53,666 nucleotides of DNA from a virus. Taxonomy: Duplodnaviria; Caudoviricetes. The stretch spans positions 1-53,666 of IMG/VR virus record IMGVR_UViG_3300045120_000224. One strand, written 5' to 3'. The notes beneath the pieces are model-generated. The model was not told the origin of the DNA, did not search any database, and was given only the letters and a program-made list of their open reading frames with translations. The position numbers and the translations under genes were made by a program. Positions 5,095-23,894 of this stretch are shown here, piece by piece (within the stretch, counting starts at the first letter, position 1; each line of letters starts with the position of its first letter).

Positions 5095-5173
5095 GGACCC
5101 AGCCTACATCAAACGTCCTACATTGTGTACACCGACACGTCCGAGAATCGGACATACCCGGCAGGTTGTGGAG

Positions 5174-5382
5174 TGTAGTCACCCCCCCCCCTGACTACAC
5201 GAAGCTGCAGGTCAGAGCATGTGTAGACATGTAGTCACCTAACAGACTCCATCTTCTCCCCGAAGGTCTTACATAGTGTACAAAGATATGGAGTTTGTTT
5301 TTGCCCTGGACAAACCGGACAGTGTCGGGTGAAAACCAGGGCTGACCTGCGCAAACGTGTAGTCACCCCTAGGGTGACTACA
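5174..5382. repeat. Palindromic TGTAGTCAC element A (origin- or operator-like)
   Basis: TGTAGTCA/TGACTACA at 5174, 5192, 5230, 5358, 5374, variant at 5222; CAGGTCAG 5208 and CTGACCTG 5342. Confidence 0.85.
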
Positions 5383-5769: not shown

Positions 5770-5773
5770 ACGT

Positions 5774-6240: not shown

Positions 6241-6459
6241 TCGGGCCCGCCGGGGTGGGCACGTCCTCGCCGGCTCTGCCTCACAGCGTACGACGTCGAC
6301 GTCCTGGCACGCCTTGCACGCCCTGGCGCGCAGGCCCGGGTGTAGGTGCCCGCCAGGGTCGTCGGGGCCCTCCAGCGGTCTGCCGCGCCGTCGCAGGCTG
6401 CCCCCGGACAGCGGCCGATACCGGTAGCATCCCGGATTAGTCGATCAGTGGAGGACGAC

Positions 6460-9400
6460 GTGGGCCGTTTCGACAACTCGGGGCTCCAGAAGTGGACGAA
6501 GATCGCCAAGGCCCCCGAGGCGCCGGCGGGTATGCAGCAGGCGGCGGTGGCCGCTCGCGGTTACGAGGCGGGCACCCCGCGGTTCGCCGACTCCAGGATC
6601 GGGCGGTTCACCTCGCAGCAGGGTTTCGTCGACACCGCGCGGAACTGGTACACCGGGGCCAACCGTGAGGGCACGAACAACGGCTGGGACACGCAGTTCA
6701 CCAACGACTTCATCAACGGGCAGAACGAGGCGGCGTCCAAGGGCCAGCTGAACACGTACTTCTCCCAGCCGGACGCCACCGGTGTGGTGACCTGGGATCA
6801 CAGGCTGGCCGACGGCACGCAGGCCCACTTCGGCGACGTGTTCAAGAACGGCCGCAAGGTCGACAACGTCTACCACACGTTCGGTCGTGACACCGGCAAC
6901 CTGATGATGAGCCAGTTCGTGCTGAGCGGCGACCAGAAGGCGCATGTGTTCAGCGCCTCGGACAACGTGGAGCGGCTCAACCGGGAGATCGTCGGGGTCC
7001 GCGAGCAGAACAACGTCGACATCCCGAAGGGGCAGGCCGCGATCCGCTTCCAGGACACGGTGGAGAAGACGACACGGCAGTTCGAGCGGGGTCACGTCGA
7101 CGAGGCGGCGGTGCTGGGCGGTGCCGCCGGTGGGGCTGCGGTCGGCACCGGTATCGGTGTGGGGGTCGGTGCGGCGTTCTTCGGTGTCGGTGCCCCCGTG
7201 GGTGCCGCGGTCGGTGCGGGGGTCGGTGCGGTGGCCGGTGGGATCGGCGCGTTCTTCAACAGGGACGCGCTGACCCAGCAGGCGGCACGGGCTTATGAGA
7301 TCACCGCGATGAGCAACCGGGAGAACGGTGGCAGCGCGGCGGTGGCCACCGGGATCCAGCAGTGGGCGGGGTTCTCCCAGAAGCTGACGTCCCCGCTGAG
7401 CAATCTGCTGCAGGGCGGCTATGACGCGACGCGGGGGAAGGGCGGTGACGGCGAGTCGGAGTTCTACCGGACGGACGCGAAGGGGAAGGCGCACACTCCG
7501 GCCTGGGTGAAGATCGCGGACGTCGGTGCGGCGATCGGTGACGGTGCGCTGGAGTTCGCCAGCCCCATCGGTGCCGGGCTCTACACGGCGCAGATGGGCG
7601 GTGTGATCAGTGGCGAGGTCGGGGAGCTGGCGATCACCAGGGGGAAGGCGTTCGACTACTCCCGTGGCGGGTTCGACAACATCTTCACCGACGACAAGGG
7701 CAACTTCTCCGCTACCGAGGGTGCGGCCGGCATCGCCAAGGTCGGCATCGACATGGTGCAGATGGGGATGGCCCGCGGGCTGCTGGGCCGGGTGCAGTCC
7801 GCCCGGGGTGCCGCCGGGCTCGAGGAGGTCGGTGCGCCGTCCGCGATCGGGAAGAGGCTCTACGGCGGTAGGGATGTGGCCGACCGGGCGCTGCCGGGCT
7901 GGCTCGGCGGCCGCACGGCGGCGCAGCGGGAGGCGCTGACCAACGGTGGGGCTGAGGAGATCCTCAAGGGGTTCCGGTATGTGACGGACAGCACCGGGAA
8001 GGTGGTCGGTAACCGGCGGGCCACGCTGTCCCTGCTGGCACCCAGTGAGCAGCTGGGTGCGCTGAGCACCCGGGTGCTGGCGCTGCGGGCCAGGGCGCGG
8101 AACGCGGGTGCGCTGAGCGCGGACGACTTCTACCGGGCGGCCACCGCGATGGAGCACGGTGAGCGGAGGTTCACCACGGCTCTGGTGAACGGGATGGGTG
8201 AGGGCTACGAGGAGGCGGTGCAGGCGGTCCTTGAGCCGTACTCCCACGACGACAAGGTCTCCTACGCCGACATCGGGAACAGCGCGCTGTACGGCTTCGC
8301 GGGTGGTGTCGGGATGGGTCTGGGCACGAACGCCCGGATGCCGACGGCCTCGGAGAGGCTGGACGCGAAGGTCAGGCTGGCGCACCGGATCCAGACCGGT
8401 GGCGCCGACATCGACGAGCGGCTGCTCGCGGGGATGAGCCTGAGCGAGAAGCAGGCCCGTGCCGCGATGTCGGGGATCGAGACGGCGACGGCGAGGGCGG
8501 CCTACGACAAGCTGGCCGACGACCACGCCGCCGAGCTCACCGCCGGCGTGGAGGGCGTGAACAGGCTGGCGGACGCGGTGAAGACGACGATCGCGGCCGA
8601 CCTGGTGCGGGTGGGCCCACGTACCGACGTCCCGTTCGTGATCACCCAGCTCGAGGAGGCGGGCCGTGTCGACTCCGCCGGGACGCTGATCGGTAACAGC
8701 CTCCCCTCCGACGCGGTCGCCTCCAGTGGTGCGCAGCTGCTGCGCAACTACGCGAACCGGATGACCGGTGTGGGCGAGCAGCTCACCACGTTGCAGCGTG
8801 ACCAGGCTGACAACGAGCAGGCGCTCGTCAACGACCCGGCCTCCGAGGCGCTGACCGCCAGGAAGGCGGAGCTGGCCACGAACATCACCCGCACGCAGGC
8901 GATGCTGGACCTCGGGGAGCAGTTCGCGGCCGAGATCGACGACCACGTCTCCCAGATGTACGCCACCAAGGCGGACCCGAACAGCATCGCGGCGGAGTCC
9001 GAGCTGCTCAACCACAAGATCCGGGCGGCGTTCAACCTCCAGGTCGACACGCTCGGTGGTGTCGTGCTGGACCGGGAGCAGAAGATGGCGCTGGCACGGG
9101 CCGTCAGCGCGGTGGTGACCCGTGACCCGCAGGACCAGTCGGGGTCCTACCAGGTGCTGGTGCCGCAGGTCTCCGCGAACCTCACGATCGCCAACTCCGA
9201 CAACGTGCTGCAGGTCTCCCACGCGATCCTCCCGGCGATCCGCGGCGACTTCGACGGGGACAAGATCCGGACGCTGAACCAGCTGATGCTCGACGAGACA
9301 AGTTTCGTCTCGGCCCGTGCCGGGATGCACTTCCTCGGGGCGGGCACCACGGTGAACGTCGGAGCCCCCAAGTACGAGAAGTGGATGGTGCAGTACCTCG

Positions 9401-12400
9401 CGGAGGGGATGCGCAGCACCAACGACGCGCTGCGGAACTTCGCCACCGGCACGCTGACCCACATCTCCGGAGCGGTCCGGGACCGCTACGACGGGGTGGT
9501 CGACGCCGGTCTGCTGAACCGGGTGCTCAAGGACTTCTACGACGCGGTGTACGCGGGCGACAAGGACGCCCGCTCGGTGCTGCTGGACGGGCTGGCCGGC
9601 TCGGAGGCCGGTGGCGCGATCACCGAGTTCGCCCGGTCCAACCTGAGCAACGAGTGGCTCTGGATCGACCAGCTCGTCCGGTCCTCCATGCAGGAGTACC
9701 AGGAGTCGTACGCCGCGAACCGCAAGCACTTCGGCCCGGAGCCGGGCGAGAGGCGCGGGCGGCCCACGAAGCGGGCCACCGCTGTGCGGGAGCGGCGTGC
9801 GGCACGGGCGGCCACCACCGGTCAGACGGTGGGGATCTGGCTCGAGGGCGACCAGATGTTCCGCAAGATGCAGAAGCTGCACTACACCACCCTGTCGGCC
9901 GCCGTGCGCAGCGCGGACGACGCCGGCGCCCGTGCCGAGCTGGCAGAGCTGGCGATGCAGTACGAGATGCTCGGCCAGGAGGCGTCCCAGTCCGAGCTGG
10001 ACCGGGTCCGCGGCAAGGACGACATCACCGGGCGGGTGCTGACCCAGCTGATGTACCTGGCGCGCAACGCCACCAGCCTCGACGACCGGCTCTCCCCGAT
10101 CCAGGCGATGGCGGTGATCGCCAACGTGCAGGTCACCGACTTCGACATCGCGGCGGACGGCGAGCTGTCCACGTCGGGCAAGCAGATCTCCCTCGCGCAG
10201 TCGCTGCTGAAGCGCTCGATCGCGCGTGACCGGGGCGAGAAGGCCGCGATCTACGAGGCCAGCCCCGAGCTGCAGGCCAAGCACGCCCGGCTGCGCTCGA
10301 TGACCTACGCCGACGGCCAGGGCGTCAAGGGCAGCGGGGTGAACGCCCAGCGCGCGTTCACCGAGGTGTTCGGCGCGATGCAGATGTTCATGCTGCTCGG
10401 TGACGACGCCGGCCCGCTCGGCCCGCACATGACGGTGGAGCAGTACCTGCGGTTCTACACCGAGAAGTCGGAGTCGGACCGGCGCAGCGAGGACTACAAG
10501 CTCCGCAACGAGGCCGCGTACCTGGGCCGCAAGACCACCACCGACCTGCCCTACTCCGTCCAGGAGCTCGTCGACGGCAACGTGTCCCCGTACCGGTCGG
10601 TGGTGGACTCCCTGATCGCGGTCGGCCACAAGCGTCTCGCCATCGACGCCGACGTCGCGGCGTCGAAGGACACCACCCGGCACCACCTGTCCGGTGAGTA
10701 CGCCGAGCAGCACTACCGGGTGTCCAAGCAGTTCCAGAAGGCGATCACCGACGCCCGTGCCGCGCTGTTCGAGTTCGGCCGGCTGTCCCCGCGCGACGAG
10801 CTGAGCGCGGAGACGGTGAGGCGGCTGCTGGAGAACAACCCGCAGTTCGCCCGGCAGGTGATGGCGCTGATCCCGAAGGCCGCCGCGGGCTCCACCTTCG
10901 AGATCCGCAACGACGAGGTCTACGTCGCCAACTGGGTCTACGACATGTTCACCTTCAAGGACCCCGCCGAGGCGGAGATGCACTTCTGGCGGTCCACGCT
11001 GCTGGCCGAGTGGAACGCCAGGGGCCAGAACAGCCCTCCGGAGACCGAGGACGACGAGGGCTGGGCGGAGCGGGACTACATGCGGCTGTCCCGCCGGATG
11101 CACCGGGTGCTCTACAACATGAGCCCGGAGCGTCAGCACGACCACGGGGTGCGGCTGGCGAAGTTCGTGACCGAGATGCGCAACGCCACCAGCCTCGAGG
11201 AGTTCCTCCGCTGGGTGAACACCACCCCGGGTGTCCGCGGTGACCAGGCGCCGCTGCTCGGGTGGGTCGACGACACCGCGCAGTTCGACGTGGACAAGGC
11301 GTCCGGCGGCTGGTCGACCGCACTGGCGGGCACGGAGCAGCGCGAGGCCATCGCGTCCCTGTCGCGCGGTGCCACGAACCTGGTCAAGGACATCGCGGAC
11401 GAGCGGGCCGCCTGGTCGACCGACCGTTCCGTGATCGCCGCCATCGAGCGGGTGATCAAGGCCGACGCGGGCGGCAACGTCAAGCTGGACGCCGGTGACC
11501 GGGACCTCTACGACGCCTTCGCCCGCTCCATCGAGAAGGCGGGCGAGCTCTCCAACGGGCTCGGCCCGCAGGCGATGATGTACCAGGTCGTCGGTGCGGT
11601 GCGCGGGTTCTACCCGCAGGCCCACACCAAGGGCAAGAACCCCGACTACGTGGAGCCGGCCGGCGCGTTCGACGCGCTGGCCGACGCCTTCGACTACACC
11701 ACCAACTACGAGCGGCTGCTGTCCTCGATGACGTCGCTGAACATGGACGCGGTCGGCGGCAACCTGTCCCAGGTCGCCAAGGACGGCGGCCGCACCATGG
11801 ACGACGCGGGCCGCCAGGTCTCCTGGGACAAGCCGACGCCCCAGGCGATGATCGCGCTGCTGAAGAACCCCGACACCCGGCCGCTGGCCCGTGCCGTGCT
11901 GTTCCCGCAGGTGATGGAGCGTACCGTCGAGGGGCGGCTGTCCCCGCAGCTGCTGGTCGGCAAGTCGCTGAAGTCGCTGCTCGACCGGTCCGCCTTCGAC
12001 AACCTGTTCGAGCGCAACGACAGCCTCTCCCACGACAACGCGCTGCGGTACCTGTCGGTGGTGGAGGCCGCCGCCCGCAAGGAGGGCGGCCACTTCTCCG
12101 TGCAGCGGGCCGTCAACGACATCGTGATCGCCCGGACCAGCGCCGCTGACCATGTACTGTCCACCTACGAGCTCGAGCAGATGGCACGCACCGCGATGTA
12201 CGAGGTCGCACAGATCCTGCAGGACGTCGGGAGCCTGGCCAGCGCACCGGCCGACCCCAACGCCCACCCGCTGGACACGGTGCTCACCGAGATCCGGGCC
12301 GCCCAGCGTCGGGTGCGGACTGCTGGGCGGCTCGGTTTCGAGGCCAAGGACCAGGAGATCACCGACTCGGTCCTCGAGGACCTGATCAACCGCCGCCTCG

Positions 12401-15400
12401 CGGAGATGGAGTCCGACAAGAACGACATCATCGCGGAGCGGGTGCCCGGGATGAGCGTGGCCGAGACCGAGCGGCTCGAGGCCCGGGTGCTGGCCGCCGA
12501 TGTGGACATGGACTCGTTCCGCCGGCGTGTCGAGGTGCTGAAGTCCGACGACGCCGCCGGCCTGGTCGTCGACATGTTCTCCTTCACCGGCGACCCGCAG
12601 ACCGACCCCGGCCGCCAGGGCGAGCTCATCGCCTACATCTTCTCGCGGACGGACACCTTCCGGTCCAAGTCCTCCTCCAGCCGGCAGATCATGATGAAGC
12701 TGTCCGAGCAGATCCAGGACTCCGGTCGCAACGGCCAGGTGGACCTGACCGACGACGAGTGGACCCACCTGTCGAACGCCGCGATCGCCGTGTACCTCGA
12801 CGAGACGCTGTCGATCGGCGGCATCTCGGTCCCGCCGTACCCGGACGAGGACCGCCGTGACGACCGCCGCTACTACGACATGTCGTTCTCCTACCTGGCG
12901 CAGCCGCTGCTGGACCGGAACAGCCCGCTGGTCAAGGCTGCCGTCGAGGTGCACCGGCTGGCCGGGCGCCAGGGCGACTACGCCGCGACCCCCACCGAGA
13001 TCAAGACGCTGCTGTCCCGCACCCTGTTCAAGGACTTCTCGGTCGGTGACTGGACCTCCGACATCCCGCGCTCCTCCATCGAGGCGAACCAGCGGCTCGA
13101 CTCCGCGGCCGCAGCCCAGGCCATCGCGATGGCCGGCAACTCCCCGAAGCGGCAGGCGGTGATCTCGGCCGCCACGAAGCGGACCTTCCGGGTGCCGGGC
13201 GACGACCTGCTCTCGACCGTCACGCTGTCCGCGCTGGACCTGTACCGGGGCGACTTCGACGAGGTCGCCGTCACCTTCCCCGACGGCACCGTCGGGTCGC
13301 GGCCGCTGGCGCAGCTCAACAACCGGTTCGCCCGCTCCGTGGTGATGCACTACCGGGACGCCGCCGACCCGGCCAACATCATCGAGGTCGACCTGCTGGG
13401 CACCGACCCCCGCCTCGGCCGGGTCTTCCACACCGACGACACGGCCTCCGCGTCCGGTCTCAAGGAGATCCATCTGGAACGACTCCAGAACGCGAAGGAG
13501 CGGATCGGCGTCGACGACGCCCGTGTCGTGGACATCCAGGTGAAGTTCTTCCACCCCGACTCCCAGCCGGTCGACACCGCCGAGGACCAGGCCCGGTCCC
13601 GGACCTGGTACAACAACCTGTTCTTCGAGGGCACGTCGTTCAACCTCGACGCCGACCGGCACAAGTCGCTGAACGAGACGCTCTGGTTCACCGAGGGCGG
13701 CATCAACCCGGTCTCGCAGGCCACCGCGCTGGACGCCAGCAAGCTCGGGAAGCCGGCGCTGCAGCCGGTGGAGACGGTGACCGCCGAGAAGCTGGCCGAG
13801 CTCGAGACCGACTTCGCCTCCGATCTCGGCGCGGTGCTGCGCGCCAAGACGAAGATCGCGATGACCACCTCGCTGGGGCTCGGCAAGCAGGGCAAGCTGG
13901 ACATCGAGTTCTACAACGCGGTCTACAAGGACATGAAGCTGCGGCACTTCGTGCGCGGCATCAGCAGCGCCACAGGCGAGAACCTTATATGGACCGCTGA
14001 TCAGGTTGTGGCCTATCAGCAGGCGAACCCGGGGCAGCCGCTGCCGATGAACGACCCCGCGCTGTGGGTGCCCAGCGACGACGTGCTGCGCACCATGCTC
14101 GGTGAGCAGGGCGACCAGGGCGTCGCCCGGGTCACGCCCGACTTCCTCGAGGTCGACCTGACCCGGGTCCGTGGCTACGCCGGGGTCAACGACAGGATGA
14201 AGCACCTGTTCAAGGTCGGGATGGACGGCGACACCCGGCCCATCGAGGAGACCCGGCTCTCCGCCGTCGCCCGCCAGGGCCTGCTGACGGTGCGCGCCAA
14301 CCTCGACTCCCGCACCCGTGCCCTGTACGAGACCAGGATCAAGTACTTCCAGGCGCTCAAGGACGAGATCAGCGTCGACCGTGCCAGCTTCACCGGCCGC
14401 GGCTTCGACTCGCAGCGGAACCTGGCGGCAGCGATCGCCGCCGGGGAGGCGGTGCTCCGCGCCGAGGACATCTCGATGGACTGGACCTCGGCCGGCATCC
14501 CGTTCTTCGGCCCGCGCACGCCGGGTGACTCGGCCATCAGCCGCCGGCTGCTCCAGGAGCTGGAGGCCGCGCTCCGCCCGGACGGCAACCGCAACGGGTT
14601 CATCTTCCGTGAGGGCGCGCAGGCCGACGCACCGACCGGGCTGATCACCGGGGAGTCCATCCACAACCTGAAGGGCGCGATGCGGGTGGCGCCCGGTGAC
14701 CTGGTGGTCGTCGAGCTCGACTCGTTCCGCGGCAACATGGAGCAGGCGCACAAGCGGCTGGACTGGCTGGCCGACCAGGGCGCCACCATCGTGCTCGGTG
14801 CCGCCGACGGCCAGGCCGACGTCCGCGCCGACTCCGCCGTGTTCCTGCAGTCGCTCGGCTACGAGCGGATCGCCGGTTCCGTCCACGTCTACCAGCCGAG
14901 CCTGACCACGCCACGCTTCCAGAACCTGCGTGCCCGTGCCTCCACCATGACGGAGGTCCGGGGCGTGTCACCGCGATCGCACATCGCGCTGCTGAACGTG
15001 ATGGGTCACGAGGTCGAGGAGAACTCGGCGTGGGTCGACTTCGACAACGAGCGCCTCGGCTCCATCGCTGAGACCGTCAACCTGGTGCCCACCGACTTCC
15101 TGATGGGCTTCAACGTCCCAGTCGCCCAGTACGGCAACGACTCGATGATCTCCCAGGTGCGGGCCCAGCTGAACGGGCTGAACGACGCCGAGGGCCGCAC
15201 CATGCTGCGCAACATGGCGAACGACCGGATCAAGGACAAGAAGGCACGCGCCGAGGCCGACATCGCCTTCGACTACCACTTCGACGAGATGCTCGACCGG
15301 ATGAACAACAACCCGGGCACCGTGCTCCCCCAGCCCGACGACACGTTCGGGCTCGGCTCGATGATCCCGCTGGTCGACACGATGGGCCGCATCGTGATCT

Positions 15401-18400
15401 ACCGGCACGGGATGAAGGCCCCGCACAGGTGGCGTGTCGACGAGATGACCGCGCAGACCCTCGACCGGGGTGGCGACGCGAAGAACGTGGCGGTGTTCCC
15501 CACCAAGCTGGAGTCCGCCGCCACGATCCACGATGGTCGTGTCATCGAGTTCAACCCGCGCTCCGGCTTCGGCCTGTCCGCCCGGCTCGAGATCGACCTG
15601 CAGACCCTTGGTGACAAGAAGGTCCTCGAGTGGAACGGGATGAAGTACCTGCTCACCCCGCGCCCGAAGTCGAAGGTGCTGCCCGACCACGGGATCTTCA
15701 CCAACTGGGACATCGACGGGATCGTCTCGCTCGACGACACGATGAGCAAGGAGTCGTTCGAGGGGATGGTGGACAACCACCGCAACGCCTTCGCCTACTT
15801 CGGCATCGACTTCACCGACGACATCGCCACCTTCCTCGGTGTCGACCACGCCACCGCCCTCGACATCCTGGACATGGTCGCCAACCGGGCGCCGAGGATC
15901 CAGCTCGCCGCCGCCGACGAGATCCTGAACAGCCGGCGGATCATGTCCACCGTGCTCAACCAGATCAAGGCCGCCGGCGTCCCCAACCTCGACGACGCCC
16001 TGGTCGACACGCTCGCGGACCCGACCAGCAACGAGGCGAAGATCACCGCCGCGATGCTGGTGTACCTGATGACCCCGGGTGCCCGGGTCTCCGACGTCAT
16101 CAAGTCCGGCGGCTTCAACGACGAGTCCTCCACCATCGACGCGCAGTCGATCCTGATGCCGCGGCTGTTCACCCAGGTCTTCGACAACGAGCCGCTCGGC
16201 TCCGACCTGCGCACCGAGATCAACGGCCGGCTCAACGCCCAGCTCCACAACCCGAACAACGACGGCACCGGCTACTCGCTGCGCCAGGACTGGGTGCTCG
16301 AGGTCCGCAACACGGACTCGAAGAAGAACATGTACGGGATGCTGCAGTTCGCCGAGGCCCACTCCGCCGGTGACAACCCGATCAAGAACGGGATGTCGTT
16401 CGACGAGACCGACCAGCAGACCGCCAGCCTGCACTCGGCCGCCATCGCCTACCAGGCCACCGGGGCGCAGACCGCCAACCTCTACGACCTGGCGAAGTCC
16501 CGGCTGCTGGCCGACTCGCTGCACGAGCCGAACATCAAGGACGCCAAGGACGGTGGCGTGTGGCGGATGCTCTCCGAGATCGGCTACAACGACAAGGGCG
16601 GGGCCGCGCTGTGGCGGGCCGCCACCCCGGCGGAGGCTATCCGCCGGGAGAACGGCCGCGACGCGGTGGTGCAGTTCCGGCAGGCGATCAACACCGAGGA
16701 CAAGAACGGCTGGAACAACACCACTCGGCGTGAGTACGCGGAGATCGCCACCAACATCATGCACGAGCTCGGCCTGCAGGGATCGCAGCGCGGTGTCGTC
16801 GACTTCTGGGTGCGCCAGCTCCTCGGGATGCCGTACGGCACCAACGAGCTGGGCGAGGAGGTCGGCCGCGTGAACGGCCGGTTCGCCAAGGAGGCGGCCA
16901 ACGACATCCTCTGGAACGTCCGCAACCGCTACCTTCCCGTCGTCGGTGCCGAGGTCCCGCTGCTGCACATCCATGACCTGCAGGCGATCTACCGTGCGGG
17001 CAAGTGGGTGCCGCGCTCCTCGATGGACGGCGACGCCTCGCCCGCCGGCAACTGGAACGAGTGGGTCGACATCTCGCTCGGCTCTGCGCTGACCTCCGAC
17101 AACCTGTTCGACCCGCTGTACCTGCTCGCGCTCGACGGGTTCATGCACACCTACCAGTCGGCCACCTCCTCACTGCTGGACCTCCCGGTCTCGTTCGACG
17201 CGATGAAGACCGCGCAGCTGATGGACCCCGACACCAACGCGCTGCTGGTCTCCATCAGCGACGAGACCAACCTGCTGGCCACCGACCCGATGCTGCTCGA
17301 CGTCACGAAGGCCAGCCTCGAGGCGATGATCGGCGGGCAGCGTTTCGCCGGGAAGCTCTACGCCAAGGCCGCTCCCGCCTCCGCGATCGCCAAGCGCCGT
17401 GACGCACGCCGCGAGTGGCGCAAGGAGTCGGGTGTCCCGGTGCCTGTCGACGTCTCCCTGAAGGACCTGCGCAAGAACGGCGCCCGGTTCACGCACAAGT
17501 CGACGGTGACCAACGCCTTCGCCCGCAGCCTGATCAACATGCGTGTCGGCACGGCGCTGCTCAACCCGGCGCTGTACGTCTCGATGGGCCCGGAGCAGTG
17601 GATCCGTGGCACGCTCGACCGGGCCGCGAACCTGATCACCGGTCAGTCGCTGGCCGTGCGCACCACCCGTGAGGGCGAGCTCACCTCCACCTCGCTGGCT
17701 GGTGCCGCCGCGAAGGTCGGTGACCGGCTGGCCGGCACGGCACTCGGTGAGGGCCTGGCGAACATGGGGCTGGAGATGGCGTACACGCCAGACCAGCTCG
17801 TCAAGTTCCGCCAGCTCGTCACCGTGCTCGGGCAGCGCAACGACTTCAAGGCGATGGTCTACAAGGACCTGATGTTCCTGCGGCCCTACGAGCCGGGTAT
17901 CGGCCGCATCGAGAAGTGGCTGGAGAACTACGCGAAGTTCGGCGCCAGGATGCAGGACCCTACCTGGGGGATGCGGGCCGACACCCTGGCCCGCCGCTAC
18001 CTCGAGGGCGCGCTGCAGGAGATCAACGCCACCCCGACGCTCAACGTGATCAGCAACGAGACGCTGATCGCCGCTCTCGCCACCGACCCGGAGTGGCTCA
18101 AGGACAACATGGAGGCCGCCCATAACGCGGGCACCCGCGCCGTGGCGCAGCTCCGGTCGCTCAAGCCGACGGTGCTGAGCCAGACGCTGCGCGGGATCTA
18201 CGAGCCGCTGTCCGCGTCACCGAACGCGGGGCTGAACTTCCTCGGCAACGTGGTGCTGAAGATGCCGATGCTGTTCAGCAACTACGGCATGAACGTGATC
18301 ACCACCGTCACCGGGCTGCAGGGCCTCGACCAGATGACGGCGGCGTTCATGACGGGTCGGACCAACGGGTTCAAGCACCCGCGCACCCTGCTCGGCCGGG

Positions 18401-20472
18401 TCCAGGCGAAGATGGCCGGACGGGAGATCACCCCCGACGACGACGCCAACTTCGACCTCGACTCGGTGATCGAGACCATCGACCTGTCCCGTGCGTTCAT
18501 CCGTGGCGGCCTGACCCACACAGGGCTGTTCGCCTTCGGCCTGGCCGCCGGCGGGCTCGGCCTGTCCGGTGAGGACGACGAGACGAAGAAGCGTCGCAAG
18601 CTCGCCGCGCTCCAGGGCGCGGGCTTCGTCTACGACCCGCGCGACGTGCAGAACGACTTCCGCAACAAGGACGCGATCTTCCTCGACTGGCTCCCGTTCG
18701 GGATGGACTCCTGGTTCCGGGTCACCGGCGAGGACGTGCCCGGCGGCGCCCGGTCCATGGCCCAGCTCAACTGGACCCTCAAGCAGTTCATCTCCCCGAT
18801 CATCGGGATGGAGAAGTTCTTCGAGACCGGCGACTTCCGCAACGTCACCTGGGGCTTCGAGGACGCCATCGGCTCCTTCCCGCTGATCAACACCCTGATG
18901 TGGGACGACGCCGTGCAGACCGCGCACGAGTTCGCGCAGATGGCGAACGACGAGGCGAAGCTCGGCGGGCCGCAGAACATGCCGATCGCGGCCGCGTTCG
19001 CCGCCAACGCGGTCGGCACGTACGAGCGGATGCTGTTCGAGAACTCGTTCATCAACCAGATCTACCAGGCCCGCGACCGCTACGACCGCGACCCCTACGT
19101 GCTGCCGCTGCGGGACAGCAGCGGTGCCCTGCAGCGTGACATCGAGGGCAACCCGCGCAAGCAGGACCTGGCGTTCGAGTCGTTCATCGACCCGGAGACA
19201 GGTGAGCTCAAGTCCGGCTACCTCAACCGCGACATCGACTCGGCCACCCTGCACGCGCTGACCGAGAACCGGGCCACGCTGGCTACCGTCGCCACCCTGT
19301 TCTCCGGGTTGAGCGGGAACACCCCGGACTACTTCCGCACCCAGATGCCGATAAAGGAGCGGGTCATCGAGCGGCCGCCGGTGAGCCAGGCGGAGGCCGA
19401 GACGCTGATCCGGAAGATCTCCCAGGACACCAGCGGCGGCCAGCCGAACCTGACGGCCGACGAGATCTCCTCGATCATGAAGGCCAACGGGCGCAAGGCC
19501 GGGGTCTTCCTCGACTACAACAAGGTCGACGCCCAGGCCGCCGCCTTCGCCAAGCAGGAGGGTCCGGCCGCGATGTCGGTCCTCGACGCGCAGGGCCGCG
19601 AGCTGCTCACCAAGGAGGGTGCGCACGGCGTGCTCCGCGGCCTGGCCAAGATGAGCGTCCACCTCGGTGACGCCTCGCTGCGCGGCATCCACATCCCGTT
19701 CAAGATGCGCGAGGAGATCCAGAAGGACTGGATGCGCGAGCTCATCCAGGACGGCGTGGACATGGGCCTGGACCAGACCAAGGCCACGTCCCGGATGAAG
19801 CGGCTGTGGTACGGCCCCATCTCCAACCCCAGCGTCCAGGGTCTCGGGGACATCCTGTGGTCCAAGGACATCTCCTACACCGACAAGATCAAGTACAACC
19901 AGCTCAACACCACCTACGTGATGGGACCGGACGGGCGGCCGTGGGCCACCGGCTTCACCCGTGACGGCCTGCTCGGCGCGCTCGGCGTCAAGCCGCTGAA
20001 GCGGGCGATGATCTCCGAGCAGGGTGCCACCGGCAACGACTCGATCCTGAACACCGTCGACTTCGTGAACAACATCAACACCGGAATGCGCGGGCTCGAG
20101 CTGATCGACGAGTCCCGCAACGTCCCGACCGATGTGGAGATCGGCAAGTCCATCGAGCAGGCCATCAAGGATGCGGCGTCCTCCGACTTCACCCCGTTCC
20201 AGCCGTTCACCAACCGGGGCGGTGGCGGCTTCGGCTTCACCCCGTTCCGCCACTTCGGCCGCTCCGGGTTCCGCCGGTTCGGCCGCGGTGGCGGCGGAGG
20301 CGGGTTCTCCTCGTTCCCCAACTTCTCCAAGATGTTCGCCCTGCCCAACGTGCGCGAGCCGTTCGGCAACGACATCCCGTTCATCAACACGACGAACCCG
20401 CTCATCCGCCGTGGCGATGTGCGGCGTGAGAGAGTCTGGTCCGAGCGAGGAAGGCTGAAGCAGTGGCAGTGA
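6460..20472 (+). CDS. Giant (~4,670 aa) virion protein, putative two-barrel DNA-dependent RNA polymerase / ejection polyprotein
   Basis: 14-kb open frame with GC3 bias; GGAGG RBS before GTG 6460 (the track starts at 6346). TRDP...RGDFDGDK at 9118-9264; GDKKVLEWNGMK at 15610-15645; N-terminal glycine zipper; directly upstream of the portal. Confidence 0.75.
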   Translation: MGRFDNSGLQKWTKIAKAPEAPAGMQQAAVAARGYEAGTPRFADSRIGRFTSQQGFVDTARNWYTGANREGTNNGWDTQFTNDFINGQNEAASKGQLNTYFSQPDATGVVTWDHRLADGTQAHFGDVFKNGRKVDNVYHTFGRDTGNLMMSQFVLSGDQKAHVFSASDNVERLNREIVGVREQNNVDIPKGQAAIRFQDTVEKTTRQFERGHVDEAAVLGGAAGGAAVGTGIGVGVGAAFFGVGAPVGAAVGAGVGAVAGGIGAFFNRDALTQQAARAYEITAMSNRENGGSAAVATGIQQWAGFSQKLTSPLSNLLQGGYDATRGKGGDGESEFYRTDAKGKAHTPAWVKIADVGAAIGDGALEFASPIGAGLYTAQMGGVISGEVGELAITRGKAFDYSRGGFDNIFTDDKGNFSATEGAAGIAKVGIDMVQMGMARGLLGRVQSARGAAGLEEVGAPSAIGKRLYGGRDVADRALPGWLGGRTAAQREALTNGGAEEILKGFRYVTDSTGKVVGNRRATLSLLAPSEQLGALSTRVLALRARARNAGALSADDFYRAATAMEHGERRFTTALVNGMGEGYEEAVQAVLEPYSHDDKVSYADIGNSALYGFAGGVGMGLGTNARMPTASERLDAKVRLAHRIQTGGADIDERLLAGMSLSEKQARAAMSGIETATARAAYDKLADDHAAELTAGVEGVNRLADAVKTTIAADLVRVGPRTDVPFVITQLEEAGRVDSAGTLIGNSLPSDAVASSGAQLLRNYANRMTGVGEQLTTLQRDQADNEQALVNDPASEALTARKAELATNITRTQAMLDLGEQFAAEIDDHVSQMYATKADPNSIAAESELLNHKIRAAFNLQVDTLGGVVLDREQKMALARAVSAVVTRDPQDQSGSYQVLVPQVSANLTIANSDNVLQVSHAILPAIRGDFDGDKIRTLNQLMLDETSFVSARAGMHFLGAGTTVNVGAPKYEKWMVQYLAEGMRSTNDALRNFATGTLTHISGAVRDRYDGVVDAGLLNRVLKDFYDAVYAGDKDARSVLLDGLAGSEAGGAITEFARSNLSNEWLWIDQLVRSSMQEYQESYAANRKHFGPEPGERRGRPTKRATAVRERRAARAATTGQTVGIWLEGDQMFRKMQKLHYTTLSAAVRSADDAGARAELAELAMQYEMLGQEASQSELDRVRGKDDITGRVLTQLMYLARNATSLDDRLSPIQAMAVIANVQVTDFDIAADGELSTSGKQISLAQSLLKRSIARDRGEKAAIYEASPELQAKHARLRSMTYADGQGVKGSGVNAQRAFTEVFGAMQMFMLLGDDAGPLGPHMTVEQYLRFYTEKSESDRRSEDYKLRNEAAYLGRKTTTDLPYSVQELVDGNVSPYRSVVDSLIAVGHKRLAIDADVAASKDTTRHHLSGEYAEQHYRVSKQFQKAITDARAALFEFGRLSPRDELSAETVRRLLENNPQFARQVMALIPKAAAGSTFEIRNDEVYVANWVYDMFTFKDPAEAEMHFWRSTLLAEWNARGQNSPPETEDDEGWAERDYMRLSRRMHRVLYNMSPERQHDHGVRLAKFVTEMRNATSLEEFLRWVNTTPGVRGDQAPLLGWVDDTAQFDVDKASGGWSTALAGTEQREAIASLSRGATNLVKDIADERAAWSTDRSVIAAIERVIKADAGGNVKLDAGDRDLYDAFARSIEKAGELSNGLGPQAMMYQVVGAVRGFYPQAHTKGKNPDYVEPAGAFDALADAFDYTTNYERLLSSMTSLNMDAVGGNLSQVAKDGGRTMDDAGRQVSWDKPTPQAMIALLKNPDTRPLARAVLFPQVMERTVEGRLSPQLLVGKSLKSLLDRSAFDNLFERNDSLSHDNALRYLSVVEAAARKEGGHFSVQRAVNDIVIARTSAADHVLSTYELEQMARTAMYEVAQILQDVGSLASAPADPNAHPLDTVLTEIRAAQRRVRTAGRLGFEAKDQEITDSVLEDLINRRLAEMESDKNDIIAERVPGMSVAETERLEARVLAADVDMDSFRRRVEVLKSDDAAGLVVDMFSFTGDPQTDPGRQGELIAYIFSRTDTFRSKSSSSRQIMMKLSEQIQDSGRNGQVDLTDDEWTHLSNAAIAVYLDETLSIGGISVPPYPDEDRRDDRRYYDMSFSYLAQPLLDRNSPLVKAAVEVHRLAGRQGDYAATPTEIKTLLSRTLFKDFSVGDWTSDIPRSSIEANQRLDSAAAAQAIAMAGNSPKRQAVISAATKRTFRVPGDDLLSTVTLSALDLYRGDFDEVAVTFPDGTVGSRPLAQLNNRFARSVVMHYRDAADPANIIEVDLLGTDPRLGRVFHTDDTASASGLKEIHLERLQNAKERIGVDDARVVDIQVKFFHPDSQPVDTAEDQARSRTWYNNLFFEGTSFNLDADRHKSLNETLWFTEGGINPVSQATALDASKLGKPALQPVETVTAEKLAELETDFASDLGAVLRAKTKIAMTTSLGLGKQGKLDIEFYNAVYKDMKLRHFVRGISSATGENLIWTADQVVAYQQANPGQPLPMNDPALWVPSDDVLRTMLGEQGDQGVARVTPDFLEVDLTRVRGYAGVNDRMKHLFKVGMDGDTRPIEETRLSAVARQGLLTVRANLDSRTRALYETRIKYFQALKDEISVDRASFTGRGFDSQRNLAAAIAAGEAVLRAEDISMDWTSAGIPFFGPRTPGDSAISRRLLQELEAALRPDGNRNGFIFREGAQADAPTGLITGESIHNLKGAMRVAPGDLVVVELDSFRGNMEQAHKRLDWLADQGATIVLGAADGQADVRADSAVFLQSLGYERIAGSVHVYQPSLTTPRFQNLRARASTMTEVRGVSPRSHIALLNVMGHEVEENSAWVDFDNERLGSIAETVNLVPTDFLMGFNVPVAQYGNDSMISQVRAQLNGLNDAEGRTMLRNMANDRIKDKKARAEADIAFDYHFDEMLDRMNNNPGTVLPQPDDTFGLGSMIPLVDTMGRIVIYRHGMKAPHRWRVDEMTAQTLDRGGDAKNVAVFPTKLESAATIHDGRVIEFNPRSGFGLSARLEIDLQTLGDKKVLEWNGMKYLLTPRPKSKVLPDHGIFTNWDIDGIVSLDDTMSKESFEGMVDNHRNAFAYFGIDFTDDIATFLGVDHATALDILDMVANRAPRIQLAAADEILNSRRIMSTVLNQIKAAGVPNLDDALVDTLADPTSNEAKITAAMLVYLMTPGARVSDVIKSGGFNDESSTIDAQSILMPRLFTQVFDNEPLGSDLRTEINGRLNAQLHNPNNDGTGYSLRQDWVLEVRNTDSKKNMYGMLQFAEAHSAGDNPIKNGMSFDETDQQTASLHSAAIAYQATGAQTANLYDLAKSRLLADSLHEPNIKDAKDGGVWRMLSEIGYNDKGGAALWRAATPAEAIRRENGRDAVVQFRQAINTEDKNGWNNTTRREYAEIATNIMHELGLQGSQRGVVDFWVRQLLGMPYGTNELGEEVGRVNGRFAKEAANDILWNVRNRYLPVVGAEVPLLHIHDLQAIYRAGKWVPRSSMDGDASPAGNWNEWVDISLGSALTSDNLFDPLYLLALDGFMHTYQSATSSLLDLPVSFDAMKTAQLMDPDTNALLVSISDETNLLATDPMLLDVTKASLEAMIGGQRFAGKLYAKAAPASAIAKRRDARREWRKESGVPVPVDVSLKDLRKNGARFTHKSTVTNAFARSLINMRVGTALLNPALYVSMGPEQWIRGTLDRAANLITGQSLAVRTTREGELTSTSLAGAAAKVGDRLAGTALGEGLANMGLEMAYTPDQLVKFRQLVTVLGQRNDFKAMVYKDLMFLRPYEPGIGRIEKWLENYAKFGARMQDPTWGMRADTLARRYLEGALQEINATPTLNVISNETLIAALATDPEWLKDNMEAAHNAGTRAVAQLRSLKPTVLSQTLRGIYEPLSASPNAGLNFLGNVVLKMPMLFSNYGMNVITTVTGLQGLDQMTAAFMTGRTNGFKHPRTLLGRVQAKMAGREITPDDDANFDLDSVIETIDLSRAFIRGGLTHTGLFAFGLAAGGLGLSGEDDETKKRRKLAALQGAGFVYDPRDVQNDFRNKDAIFLDWLPFGMDSWFRVTGEDVPGGARSMAQLNWTLKQFISPIIGMEKFFETGDFRNVTWGFEDAIGSFPLINTLMWDDAVQTAHEFAQMANDEAKLGGPQNMPIAAAFAANAVGTYERMLFENSFINQIYQARDRYDRDPYVLPLRDSSGALQRDIEGNPRKQDLAFESFIDPETGELKSGYLNRDIDSATLHALTENRATLATVATLFSGLSGNTPDYFRTQMPIKERVIERPPVSQAEAETLIRKISQDTSGGQPNLTADEISSIMKANGRKAGVFLDYNKVDAQAAAFAKQEGPAAMSVLDAQGRELLTKEGAHGVLRGLAKMSVHLGDASLRGIHIPFKMREEIQKDWMRELIQDGVDMGLDQTKATSRMKRLWYGPISNPSVQGLGDILWSKDISYTDKIKYNQLNTTYVMGPDGRPWATGFTRDGLLGALGVKPLKRAMISEQGATGNDSILNTVDFVNNINTGMRGLELIDESRNVPTDVEIGKSIEQAIKDAASSDFTPFQPFTNRGGGGFGFTPFRHFGRSGFRRFGRGGGGGGFSSFPNFSKMFALPNVREPFGNDIPFINTTNPLIRRGDVRRERVWSERGRLKQWQ

Positions 20473-22466
20473 GCTACCAGACGGTCGGCGGGTTCGACGA
20501 GTGGTACGTCGACTACAACCCCAATGGCGGCCGCGACGGCAACCTCGACTGGCGTGGCTTCTCGCCACAGGCCGACGAGATCTGGCGCATGTGGCAGACC
20601 TACAAGCGCGAGATGGACCTGCGGGTCGAGAACTACGACATCCTCGAGATGCTGGCCGACGGCGAGGTGATCAGCCCGAAGGCCGACCTCCCCAACATCA
20701 GCAGCGGGGAGACGGCCGGGCTGGTCCGCCGGATCGCCCGCAACCTGGTGCAGAACACCCCGAACGTTGAGGTCATCTCCCGGTTCAACGACGACGACAT
20801 GAAGGGGATCTTCGCCCGGCACATCCTCGGCGCGAAGATCATCGGCTCCGACGAGTACTCCAACGACATGCAGCAGAACCTGTTCGCGTCGACGAAGACC
20901 AGCATCACCCTCGGGTTCGCCTGCGTCATCCCGGTGCTGCTGCAGGACGCGGCCGGCGGCTGGTACATGAAGTACGACACCATCCACTACCGCGACGTGT
21001 TCCCCGAGCCGGGGACCAAGGACGTCCGCTCCTGCTGCTCGGTGTTCGTACGCCGCTACCTGACCCGTGGCGAGGCGGTCTCCCTCATCTTCGACCAGGC
21101 GCCCGGCTGGGACCTCGACGCGCTGAAGCTGCTGGTCAAGAACCGGCCGCCGGCACGGGAGAACCAGAGCGTCGACCACCAGACGAAGAAGCACCACCAG
21201 ATCCCGGACGGCTACGAGATCATCACCTGGTACACCGACTCGGGTGCCGACTTCCTCACGTTCTCCGCGAACACCAAGATGCTGCTGCGCATCGAGAAGA
21301 ACAAGCACCCGCTCAAGCAGCACCCGGTCCACTTCCTGGTGCTCGAGAAGGACGAGCACCAGCCGCTCGGGAAGTCCCAGGTGGAGCTGCTGATCGGCCG
21401 CCAGGACTTCCAGGACCTGATGCTCAACGGTGCGATGAAGCTGTGGTACCGCAACATCAACCCGAGCATCATCGGCTACGGGACCGTCAACGCGGTGCCG
21501 AACCTGAGCCCCGGCAAGTACACCCAGATCTCCAACCCGAACGCGAAGATCGAGCCGTTCGAGGTGAACACCCAGACGCTGATGCAGTACTCCTCGATCA
21601 GCCAGCAGAACCTCGGGTCGATGGTCAGCCTGATCGGTGCCGCCGACCAGCAGATGGCTCAGTCCCAGGGCGGCAACGGCCAGGGCATGAGCGCCACACC
21701 GCAGGGTGTCGAGGCACAGCAGGCGATGGTCGACATCACCACGAACAACTACCAGAAGGCGATCGAGGCGTTCTTCAGCCACTACTGCTCCTACGCGCTG
21801 ACGATCTACTTCCAGGAGCTGAAGGCGGTGAAGAAGGTCCGGCCCTCGGCCGAGGCCCGGATCAAGCTGCTCGAGGCCGGGCTCGACCCGGAGCGGATCA
21901 ACCCCGACGGGTCCATCGAGGTGGACTTCGAGGACATGGCGACCGAGTACTGGGTGCGCTGCGTGCCCGGCTCGCTGGTCGAGATGGAGGACGAGAAGCA
22001 GCTCCGGATCCTGAACCAGCTGTTCATCCCGCTCTCCCAGGCGATGCCGGCGCTGGTCGCCACCCAGGACCCGGACCTCACCCGGCAGGCGGCCAAGGCC
22101 ATGCAGTACATCGTCGGCAAGCAGATCGAGCTCTCCGGCGCCACGTCCGCCAAGGAGCTGGGACTGCTCTGGTCGAAGGGCGACGTCGAGCAGGTCAACG
22201 AGCGCGACGCGCGCATCGGCGCGGTCGAGGACATGATCTCCGCGTTCAGCGGTGGGGCCGAGGCCGAGCTCGAGCAGAACGGCCTGGCCATCGCACAGAT
22301 GCAGCAGCAGATCAGCCTGATGGCCCAGAACCAGCAGATCCTGCTCGAGAAGCTAGGTGTGATGCAGCCCGGATCTGGAACCGGTTCTACTACAGAAGCG
22401 GAGACACCGGCTGAAGATGTAGCAGAACCCGCCGAAGAACCTACTGTTTACCCTGCCAGCGCCTGA
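20463..22466 (+). CDS. Portal protein (podovirus type)
   Basis: 667 aa immediately upstream of the capsid gene; Gln-rich C-terminal coiled coil as in P22-like portals. Call rests on synteny and character. Confidence 0.7.
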   Translation: MAVSYQTVGGFDEWYVDYNPNGGRDGNLDWRGFSPQADEIWRMWQTYKREMDLRVENYDILEMLADGEVISPKADLPNISSGETAGLVRRIARNLVQNTPNVEVISRFNDDDMKGIFARHILGAKIIGSDEYSNDMQQNLFASTKTSITLGFACVIPVLLQDAAGGWYMKYDTIHYRDVFPEPGTKDVRSCCSVFVRRYLTRGEAVSLIFDQAPGWDLDALKLLVKNRPPARENQSVDHQTKKHHQIPDGYEIITWYTDSGADFLTFSANTKMLLRIEKNKHPLKQHPVHFLVLEKDEHQPLGKSQVELLIGRQDFQDLMLNGAMKLWYRNINPSIIGYGTVNAVPNLSPGKYTQISNPNAKIEPFEVNTQTLMQYSSISQQNLGSMVSLIGAADQQMAQSQGGNGQGMSATPQGVEAQQAMVDITTNNYQKAIEAFFSHYCSYALTIYFQELKAVKKVRPSAEARIKLLEAGLDPERINPDGSIEVDFEDMATEYWVRCVPGSLVEMEDEKQLRILNQLFIPLSQAMPALVATQDPDLTRQAAKAMQYIVGKQIELSGATSAKELGLLWSKGDVEQVNERDARIGAVEDMISAFSGGAEAELEQNGLAIAQMQQQISLMAQNQQILLEKLGVMQPGSGTGSTTEAETPAEDVAEPAEEPTVYPASA

Positions 22467-22496: not shown

Positions 22497-23894
22497 ATGG
22501 TCGCACCAGTCCAGAAGGACAGCCTGACCGACTACCAGGTCGCTCTGGCCACGTACCTTCGCATCACCAGCCCCGTGGCTGGGATGTTCACCGGGTCGGA
22601 GATCAAGCCGAACCCGAACGCCCGGTCCATCCGGGTACCCGACATCCGGGTCGACGACTACATCGTCGACGCCGAGCTGGGCCGGATCGGGTCCGAGCAC
22701 TACTCCGGGTCGGAGTTCACCGGCGAGTGGAAGAACGGCGTGCCGCCCATCGAGTGGCGCACCTACTCCATGAGCCGCCACCGCGCCTTCGGCTTCACCG
22801 TCTTCGACGAGCAGCTCCGCTACTCGCCGATCAAGAACATCGTCCAGGAGTACACCGGCCGCAAGATGCAGACCACGGTCCTGCGCGACCACGACAAGTA
22901 CTGCCTGCTCGCCGCGATCTCCGGCCACATGACCGGCAAGCTCGTGCCGCGCACCGCCGCCGACACGCCCGGCCCGCAGTTCGTCGACGCGGTGAAGGTC
23001 TCCAACACCGGCAACGCCGCGGACTACAAGTGGATCGCGGAGCCCGGCGAGGACTTCGACAACCAGATCCAGCCGTCGTTCGCCACCATCAAGGGCGTCT
23101 TCCTCAACGACACCGACCCGCTCTCCACGCTGGACGCGCTGACGCTGCTGTTCAGCGACAACTGGTTCGACTCCAACTTCGGCAACAACGAGCGCTTCCT
23201 GCTCGTCACCAGCGCCCTCGAGCTCGTCTACATCAACGCGCTCATCGACGCCGGTGCCGGAACCGAGTCGGCCTTCAAGCTCCTGAAGGACGGTGACATC
23301 TCCGGCGCGAACGCGGCCGGCTACCTCGGCACCCTGAAGGGGTCGTGGAAGCTGGTCAAGATCCACCCGGAGTTCCTGCCCAAGGTCTTCACCGACACCA
23401 ACCTCGTCGTCGACCCGGTGGCCGACACGGGCACGGCGGCCCGCACGCTGCGCCAGGTCATCGCCCTGGCCGCGTACAAGAACTCGGTGCAGACCTACGA
23501 GCACTTCGCGGAGCGTCGCCAGGCCGACGGCGGCGTGCGCTTCAAGGGCACCGAGTACGTCCAGGACTTCTCCTACGACTGCTGGGTGATCGACCAGCTC
23601 AGTGAGGGTGTGGTGCCGGTGTTCCTGCCGACCACGATCTCCAACCTGCAGGTCGTCAGCGACTCGTTCACCGCCGTCGCTGCCAAGGTCGCGGCCGCCC
23701 GCGCACAGCTCTCGGTGGCTCCCGTCACCTACCCGCTGTCCGGCGCCAACACCCTCAAGTCCCGGCCCGAGTGGTACACCTCGCCGTACGAGGGCACCTC
23801 GTCCCTCACCGCCGGCGTGCAGGCCACCGGCGACGTGGCGCACCGCAACCCGCTGCTCGCCGCGGACGACACCACGGACTCGTCCGGCCAGTAG
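22497..23894 (+). CDS. Major capsid protein
   Basis: 465 aa; GAGGAGGAG RBS; very strong codon bias; ARSIRVPDI...HRAFGFTVFDE...ERFLLVTS segments typical of HK97-fold podovirus capsids; double TAG stop. Confidence 0.75.
   Translation: MVAPVQKDSLTDYQVALATYLRITSPVAGMFTGSEIKPNPNARSIRVPDIRVDDYIVDAELGRIGSEHYSGSEFTGEWKNGVPPIEWRTYSMSRHRAFGFTVFDEQLRYSPIKNIVQEYTGRKMQTTVLRDHDKYCLLAAISGHMTGKLVPRTAADTPGPQFVDAVKVSNTGNAADYKWIAEPGEDFDNQIQPSFATIKGVFLNDTDPLSTLDALTLLFSDNWFDSNFGNNERFLLVTSALELVYINALIDAGAGTESAFKLLKDGDISGANAAGYLGTLKGSWKLVKIHPEFLPKVFTDTNLVVDPVADTGTAARTLRQVIALAAYKNSVQTYEHFAERRQADGGVRFKGTEYVQDFSYDCWVIDQLSEGVVPVFLPTTISNLQVVSDSFTAVAAKVAAARAQLSVAPVTYPLSGANTLKSRPEWYTSPYEGTSSLTAGVQATGDVAHRNPLLAADDTTDSSGQ

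Follow-up and report, generated by a model that had tools for sequence, protein, structure and literature searches.

RNA polymerases that are carried in the virion and act on early genes are known from N4, from crAss-like phages (gp66), from P23-45 (gp96) and from phiKZ (virion RNA polymerase, vRNAP). The N4 enzyme is a giant, T7-like, single-subunit polymerase of 3,500 amino acids (aa) that is packaged and ejected by a podovirus, and the virion polymerases of jumbo phages are packaged as well. In the beta-prime subunit of cellular RNA polymerases, which has zinc sites, an aspartate triad follows an RxP-bearing strand in the NADFDGD region. Giant genes of another kind were reported from podophages of Microbacterium: those of cluster EK phages and phage Burro, at more than 13 kb the largest in any actinobacteriophage, have been noted since 2020 as among the largest viral genes, and their function was stated as unknown (Jacobs-Sera et al. 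2020, PMC7302621). The window analysed here, the complete virus record IMGVR_UViG_3300045120_000224 (53,666 nt; CheckV completeness 100%), is from a soil phage and carries such a giant gene (6460..20472, plus strand), whose product appears to combine, in one chain, the two catalytic halves of a cell-type RNA polymerase. Our preferred reading, held with moderate confidence, is that this product is a virion protein and that its middle portion (aa ~720-3310) forms a cell-type, two-barrel RNA polymerase as one chain.

The announcement of the EK phage Akoni terms the giant gene novel and gives no function (PMC8281081). No paper tying the EK and Burro giant genes to RNA polymerase was found in the literature consulted; the 23-family supplementary lists of PMC10770324 and the gp66 paper may include the family.

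A single open frame (6346..20472, plus strand) was present in the six-frame list of open reading frames (ORFs), and translation from the GTG start at 6460 gave 4,670 residues plus the stop codon (14,013 nt). A ribosome-binding site, GGAGGA (6450..6455, plus strand), was seen in the sequence 4 nt 5' of the GTG. An earlier prediction made from the letters alone (hereafter, the original prediction) had described one gene occupying 26% of the genome, which the ORF list and translation bear out (14,013 of 53,666 nt, or of ~53,526 nt without a 140-nt terminal repeat). It had also pointed to VVTRDPQ followed after about 35 aa by DFDGD at 9247-9261, about residue 930. Both elements were found, separated by a gap of 31 aa that leads into ILPAIRGDFDGDKI, and DFDGD occupies residues 930-934. 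The pattern D.DGD was observed once in the giant protein, against 0.18 expected from composition, and R.P-(30-45)-D.DGD arose in 33 of 5,000 shuffles of the protein (0.7%). The motif by itself is thus only mildly unlikely, and its weight rests on conservation.

Sequence homology places the giant protein together with Burro gp27 and cluster EK gp31 in one family of giant virion proteins from Microbacterium podophages. In tblastn with the first 3,000 residues, 33 phage records were matched, and Burro and ten others covered at least 80% at 29-30% identity, with Burro gp27 itself 30% identical over 98% of this part. Cluster EK phages aligned to the giant protein only from residue 872-880 onward, i.e. 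from the motif region. Foldseek against BFVD gave E-values of 5e-47 to Burro, 3e-21 to Truong and 6e-15 to TinyTimothy. Full-length homology, a size in line with 4,400-4,900 aa and a gene directly upstream of the portal gene were all found, and the known members (Burro gp27; EK gp31 of Akoni, ArMaWen and TinyTimothy; Arthrobacter phage MissAmericana) share with the giant protein its size, its place before portal and DxDGD. The phage of the window is nevertheless a lineage distinct from the EK/Burro phages: megablast of the window against phages gave no nucleotide match, and the nearest metagenomic relatives of the giant protein were 58% identical among the 25 found (4,561-5,018 aa, 35-58% identity) in a search of 5.8 billion proteins. 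With HMMER, residues 480-1679 matched 186 of 1.84 billion cluster representatives at E<=1e-3, 125 of them at E<=1e-30. Among the 150 of these matches that were listed, nearly all were 4,400-4,900 aa long or contig-truncated pieces, with identity down to ~25%. Since its relatives are many and similar in length, the giant gene defines a large, length-conserved family. One homologue (P0015) contained, at residues 3269-3324, a GNAT acetyltransferase above the Pfam cut-off (28.3 vs 20.7 bits), which indicates that lineage-specific enzyme inserts occur.

Motif conservation was examined in 139 full-length relatives, defined as family members of at least 4,000 aa, each encoded by one open frame. RxP-(30-50)-DxDxD was found within residues 600-1300 in 137 of them, and the two exceptions were N-terminally truncated, with DFDGD or DYDGD at residues 461 and 385. 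DxDGD, on whose conservation the original prediction depended, was kept in all 139 and also in Burro and Akoni. The second position of the triad loop was variable among the 137 matches (F in 55, Y in 46, H in 29 and others in 7, one of which is a regular-expression mis-hit). In an alignment of 28 sequences including Burro and Akoni, R888, P890, D930, D932, G933, D934 and K935 were invariant. The RxP element (R888-D-P890; 9121..9129, plus strand) was also invariant at its R and P in a 43-row alignment. As in the NADFDGD region of beta-prime, the putative Mg-binding triad (D930-F-D932-G-D934; 9247..9261, plus strand) follows the RxP-bearing strand.

These residues lie in a beta-prime-like active-site module (aa 719-1086; 8614..9717, plus strand). 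An AlphaFold2 model of residues 380-1579, built from a 38-row alignment, had a mean predicted local distance difference test (pLDDT) score of 79.1, exceeding 90 over aa 729-1089. Residues ~880-940, which the original prediction expected to form a double-psi beta-barrel, were modelled as strands 884-889, 898-904 and 916-919, a helix at 921-927, the DFDGD loop and a strand at 935-938, with pLDDT above 90 over 884-938, and these residues are part of the stretch that could be superposed on the active-site region of the largest RNA polymerase subunits. A double-psi beta-barrel (barrel A) bearing a DxDxD Mg-binding loop, one of the two barrels expected of the two-barrel superfamily, is therefore predicted. 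For this and the second module described below, Foldseek and VIA-align counts refer to the best 50 matches listed. In Foldseek against the PDB, 46 of 50 were largest subunits of RNA polymerases, among them beta-prime of Thermus and E. coli, Rpo147 of vaccinia and those of Pol I, II and IV. All 35 listed matches that ranked above the first unrelated one (rank 38) were of this class, with a best E of 1.9e-3 and probabilities of 0.95-0.98. With VIA-align, all 50 were largest subunits.

At the profile level, hhalign of the family profile (36 sequences, residues 700-1100) against 120 jumbo-phage beta-prime N-terminal subunits gave a probability of 88.3% (E 2.9e-6) over 53 columns spanning RxP...GDxDGD, and two cross-controls gave 0.2-0.4%. 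The 120 subunits are homologues of an ORF with Pfam Rpb1 domains 1 and 2 on a 263-kb phage contig, found by pattern scan; in BLASTP this ORF was identical to residues 852-950 of the giant protein at 31 of 99 positions (E 4e-8). No sequence found here is closer to the giant-protein motif than the GDYDGD region of this ORF. The 263-kb virus record (L011/G001) comes from a jumbo phage whose beta-prime and beta subunits are split, and its beta-prime N-terminal piece (L011:9032-10390) and beta C-terminal piece (L026:1120-3186, minus strand) were located. The fold matches, the hhalign result and the conservation together support the original assignment of RxP plus DxDGD to the two-barrel polymerases.

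Far downstream, the family consensus showed a beta-strand-rich stretch with conserved GDK...G.K (3051-3063) and SKE (3096-3098), which we take to resemble the lysine-bearing motif of beta subunits. In the giant protein, these correspond to GDKKVLEWNGMKY (aa 3051-3063; 15610..15648, plus strand), in which K3053, G3060 and K3062 were at least 90% conserved (27 and 36 rows), and to TMSKESF (aa 3094-3100; 15739..15759, plus strand), in which K3097 was conserved to the same degree. R2982 and G2984 were also at least 90% conserved in 27 rows. From these sequence motifs, a beta-type match was predicted ahead of the folding of residues 2350-3549. The resulting second AlphaFold2 model (27 rows) had a mean pLDDT of 71.3, mostly 75-92 over ~2909-3299. 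All 50 Foldseek matches in the PDB were second-largest subunits (E from 1.2e-3, probability up to 0.99), among them mycobacterial, cyanobacterial and Thermus beta, chain C of the phiKZ non-virion RNA polymerase and subunit 2 of Pol I and II. VIA-align gave 49 of 50 in the same class, and in a Foldseek-free search over 48,161 chains the top matches were double-psi beta-barrel domains and RNA polymerase beta subunits. A beta-like module (aa 2829-3310; 14944..16389, plus strand) with a second double-psi barrel of beta type in the same chain is accordingly predicted, and we regard this barrel (barrel B) as likely, yet not established. Its lysines K3053, K3062 and K3097, putative equivalents of the beta lysines by motif resemblance, would face the aspartate triad of barrel A; the two barrels were modelled separately.

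Structure prediction with Foldseek comparison to beta and beta-prime, as the original prediction had recommended, thus matched both modules to canonical subunits. The same recommendation had named gp66 and QDE-1; gp66, QDE-1, PolD and P23-45 gp96 (6VR4, 2J7N and the gp96 structures) were not among the best 50 matches of either model, and lower ranks may hold them. Support from the analysis itself extends to the homology and fold of the two barrels and to the conserved residues of the putative catalytic site. That motif and fold matches alike are chance or model artefacts, unrelated to RNA polymerases, is very improbable. The Foldseek E-values of only ~1e-3, the lack of a Pfam match and the 0.7% of shuffles that reproduced the motif pattern would agree with such an origin. 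Two separate models, however, each matched one subunit class (46 of 50 by Foldseek and 50 of 50 by VIA-align for the first; 50 of 50 and 49 of 50 listed for the second), the beta match was predicted from motifs before folding, and the hhalign probability was 88% vs 0.2-0.4% in controls.

Several results weigh against a two-barrel polymerase in the giant protein. Pfam on the whole protein gave no family at E up to 1. PF00623 (RNA_pol_Rpb1_2) and PF00562 (RNA_pol_Rpb2_6) had no match in the record at E up to 10, whereas 14 of 14 control genomes were matched; PF00940 had none either, but its control matched no genome. Neither phmmer of aa 601-1900 against the PDB nor the family profile against the PDB returned anything meaningful, and no listed Foldseek PDB match reached E<=1e-3 for either model. 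Predicted template modelling scores were 0.43 (380-1579) and 0.38 (2350-3549), so the packing of domains is unreliable, and the barrels were modelled separately. No bridge helix or trigger loop was identified in the models, which cover 380-1579 and 2350-3549. For the beta-like part, VIA-align Z was below 8 and the rmsd (root-mean-square deviation) in long alignments was 7-8 Å, a middling range, and hhalign of this region against 120 jumbo-phage beta subunits gave a probability of 0.4%, which leaves the beta-like module without sequence-profile support. The beta-prime target family of the positive hhalign match had been pre-selected, having been reached via a scan for the GD[YF]DGD pattern. Because the giant protein contains no cysteine, zinc sites of the cellular beta-prime type are impossible. 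Finally, virion association is reported only for Burro, whose protein is 30% identical, and was inferred by its authors from a gel band.

The order of the barrels is predicted as beta-prime then beta, with barrel A at ~884-938 and barrel B within 2829-3310, ~2,100 residues apart. This spacing roughly fits a head-to-tail fusion of beta-prime and beta of bacterial size, going by the lengths of these subunits. With barrel B so far downstream, the whole of ~720-3310 may belong to the polymerase, and the unexplained part would be smaller than the over 3,000 aa of the original prediction. The enzyme resembles a permuted beta-prime/beta fusion and not a compact polymerase of the gp66 type, and the far-downstream beta-like barrel is the new point. 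The gp66, QDE-1 and P23-45 enzymes carry barrel B first, followed by a connector to barrel A (PMC10770324). In the gp66, QDE-1 and gp96 type this connector is short and both barrels lie within ~800-1,400 aa, an arrangement that was not found here.

Compared with multisubunit polymerases, the giant protein is one chain instead of two or more, has neither cysteine nor zinc sites, lacks a Pfam match and carries ~2,000 extra flanking residues. In structure, the top matches of either module were beta-prime or beta subunits, with bacterial, archaeal, eukaryotic, poxvirus, African swine fever virus and phiKZ/AR9-type enzymes in this class. The two-barrel RNA polymerase in the P23-45 virion, gp96, is fused to a tape measure protein of 5,002 aa and is similar in being a ~5,000-aa virion protein with hydrophobic segments and with DFDGD in its N-terminal fifth (779 there, 930 here), and differs in having both barrels within 327-1124, in the order B then A, a flat clampless shape and a siphovirus tail (PMC10770324). 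Pfam at E up to 1 found no metallopeptidase domain in the giant protein. With gp66 of crAss-like phi14:2, the giant protein would share the character of a virion-packaged polymerase of a podovirus and a DFDxD-type motif; gp66 and QDE-1 differ in their B-then-A order with a short connector (PMC10770324), whereas the giant protein matches canonical beta-prime and beta. Some crAss-like phages have this polymerase joined to the products of adjacent genes in a single huge polyprotein (bioRxiv 10.1101/2020.03.07.982082). Packaging in and ejection from a podovirus would be shared with the giant N4 virion RNA polymerase. That enzyme is of a different (T7-like) fold class, and the fold matches of the giant protein are to two-barrel enzymes. 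PMC7302621, which also cites the N4 enzyme, reports that the EK and Burro giant genes have no similarity to it.

An active two-barrel nucleotidyl transferase other than an early-gene transcriptase would also retain these barrels. Such an enzyme might be RNA-dependent or primer-extending, primase-like or PolD-like, and serve replication or counter-defence; the two-barrel superfamily does include QDE-1-type RNA-dependent enzymes and archaeal PolD (PMC10770324). We consider this quite unlikely, as the matches listed were subunits of DNA-dependent RNA polymerases, with PolD and QDE-1 absent from the best 50, and the phage encodes its own DNA polymerase I, primase and helicase.

The proposed polymerase core is flanked by ~700 aa at the N-terminus and ~1,350 aa at the C-terminus. 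A hydropathy scan revealed a Gly/Ala-rich hydrophobic segment at aa 215-267 (7102..7260, plus strand), a possible membrane-inserting element. It gave the sole PHROGs match of the giant protein, a weak one to phrog_3405 (unknown function), and its counterpart in one homologue matched DUF6861 below the cut-off. A conserved acidic block at aa 527-619 (8038..8316, plus strand) was found in the 43-row alignment and in 28 sequences, with APSE 527-530, E581, E584, E585, Q588, G612, G616 and G618 invariant. Language-model leads for the N-terminal 720 aa all scored below 0.9. There was weak evidence of an alpha/beta (Rossmann or methyltransferase-like) fold at aa 2659-2817 (14434..14910, plus strand). 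From the conservation profile and consensus, the best-conserved part of the family was the last 670 aa (aa 4001-4670; 18460..20469, plus strand), which contains the hydrophobic GGLTHTGLFAFGLAAGGLGLS (aa 4016-4036), a Gly-rich tract and the near-invariant C-terminus RRERVWSERGRLKQWQ, and which is proposed as a packaging or ejection module. Pfam on nine C-terminal pieces of 1,100 aa gave no match, including none to LPD38. An LPD38 assignment for this region (language-model score 0.95; recognition 1892, below the 2300 mark) was dropped as a claim and kept as a lead.

Alternatively, the giant protein may be a structural internal or ejection protein (ejectosome, molecular ruler) whose polymerase-derived domains are non-catalytic scaffolding relics. 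Most of the chain is without a recognisable enzyme family, conservation is highest at the C-terminus and not in the polymerase core, the weak leads from the language model are to polyvalent or ejected-protein domains, and some GenBank records label the homologue a tape measure protein. We nonetheless hold this explanation to be unlikely. All 139 relatives kept the three Asp, the Gly and the upstream RxP at an overall identity of 25-58%, which is unexpected for a relic, and the conserved lysines of barrel B argue likewise. A ruler role is opposed by the relatives being podoviruses without a long tail to measure (PMC7302621, PMC8281081). The tape-measure annotation of homologues was rejected, as the gene precedes portal and capsid instead of lying between tail-tube or chaperone genes and distal tail genes, and the relatives are podoviruses (PMC7302621, PMC8281081). 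Scanning 10 large right-arm ORFs with PHROGs revealed no tail-tube or tape-measure family.

Cysteine was absent not only from the 4,670 residues of the giant protein but also from 114 of the 139 full-length relatives and from Burro and Akoni, which may reflect unfolded passage through the tail, or life outside the cell. Burro virions contain a ~250 kDa band, larger than any other predicted product, that was assigned to gp27 or a processed part of it (PMC7302621). The original prediction of a packaged protein agrees with this reported virion association of the Burro homologue, and packaging itself is known only for that 30% identical protein. From its place at the head of the structural operon and its 10-nt overlap with the portal gene, we infer that synthesis of the giant protein occurs late, alongside that of the capsid proteins.

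By analogy with N4, crAss-like phages, phiKZ and P23-45, a course of action can be drawn for the two-barrel polymerase, in which catalytic activity, ejection and target genes are all inferred. The protein would be packed into the head, possibly after cleavage, as in the Burro homologue, and would be ejected along with the DNA. Crossing of the envelope may be aided by the flanks, namely the Gly/Ala-rich hydrophobic segment within the N-terminal 700 aa and the conserved C-terminal 670 aa with its hydrophobic segment. Inside the cell, barrel A would hold Mg at the triad D930/D932/D934 and barrel B would supply the basic K3053, K3062 and K3097 facing it, and the core could then transcribe the first-entering genes, presumably the leftward replication arm, without the host RNA polymerase. 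A packaged RNA polymerase might instead act elsewhere in the cycle, either by transcribing middle or late genes once it has been newly made or by working at the portal or within the capsid. The location of the giant gene within the late structural operon would suit that role, which we judge to be of low probability: known virion RNA polymerases act on early genes (for instance PMC10770324), and an enzyme made late in a genome with no other RNA polymerase matched (PF00623, PF00562, PF00940) would be most useful in the next infection.

The surroundings of the giant gene correspond to those in Burro. The portal gene (20463..22466, plus strand) overlaps its end by 10 nt and is 55% identical to Burro gp28, annotated as portal, and the next gene (22497..23894, plus strand), a capsid-subunit candidate, is 81% identical to Burro gp29, whose capsid role is an inference of PMC7302621. 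The position directly before portal and capsid, noted in the original prediction, is borne out by these identities; PHROGs recognised neither gene. Since the giant protein is 30% identical to Burro gp27, against 81% for the capsid candidate and 55% for portal, the giant gene evolves much faster than its neighbours. The plus-strand arm comprises the giant gene, portal, capsid candidate, collagen-like tail fibre, minor tail protein, endolysin and large terminase subunit, and the minus-strand arm comprises primase, helicase, DNA polymerase I, exonuclease, a single-stranded DNA-binding-like protein and an ATPase. The same two-arm layout has been described for Microbacterium cluster EK phages and Burro (PMC7302621). 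The tail-fibre gene (24254-26395) contains long collagen-like Gly-X-Y repeats with 9-nt periodic direct repeats and matched PHROG tail-fibre and collagen-like families. The ends of the window (1-140 vs 53527-53666) are 99% identical, representing a short terminal repeat or a circular-assembly overlap; the source record is classed as linear.

Repeats were found in two divergent intergenic regions. One cluster of TGTAGTCAC repeats with a perfect hairpin lies upstream of the giant gene (5174..5382), and the second cluster of such repeats and hairpins lies at 34872..35102. All 13 exact copies of TGTAGTCAC in the window fall in these two regions, and 20 matches were found at one mismatch or fewer, against 7.9 expected. 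Three perfect hairpins are of the type TGTAGTCACC-N-GGTGACTACA, two of them preceded by CTGACCTG.GCAAACG. As candidate promoters or operators, the clusters may serve a polymerase of the phage itself. In relatives, 9-mer clusters occurred in the same place, within 1.7 kb upstream of the giant gene, and were lineage-specific: GGTGACTAC 6-11 times in L006 and L008, GTGTCTACA 5 times in L005, AGGTAACGG 6 times in Burro (L001) and GGCGTAACC 5 times in Akoni (L002). In this interval, L007 and L015 had only an (AT)n run, and L010 had none. The ~1 kb directly upstream of the giant gene (window 5400-6459) showed no convincing ORF and a lower G+C (0.586 for 4001-6000), and it may hold leader, regulatory or small-RNA elements. 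Next to the second repeat cluster, a short, apparently hydrophobic minus-strand ORF (~34620-34852) lies isolated amid structural genes of the plus strand.

For P23-45, DNA entry has been proposed to be coupled to transcription (PMC10770324). As a tentative extension, which we think possible though doubtful, the giant protein may represent a third, independent phage route to a polymerase, with a complete, permuted, cysteine-free beta-prime plus beta core welded to ejection machinery. A single molecule would open the envelope, pull the genome in by transcription and begin infection independently of the host RNA polymerase, and the lineage-specific 9-mer and hairpin clusters (here TGTAGTCAC) would be its promoters.

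Annotation pipelines now call these giant genes hypothetical or, wrongly, tape measure. The polymerase assignment gives a testable function to the orphan giant gene of the EK phages and Burro, which can be grown on a harmless laboratory host, and with 186 representatives at 50% clustering the family is not a curiosity. If the assignment is true, the phage would bring its own transcription enzyme into the host, and rifampicin-independent early transcription together with a new promoter specificity would be of interest. Among phages of Actinobacteria, the protein would be the first virion two-barrel polymerase, a single chain in which beta-prime precedes beta and zinc sites are lacking. Its architecture would be a third one beside the split jumbo-phage enzymes and the compact chains of the gp66/gp96 type, and it would bear on the viral capture and remodelling of cell-type polymerases.

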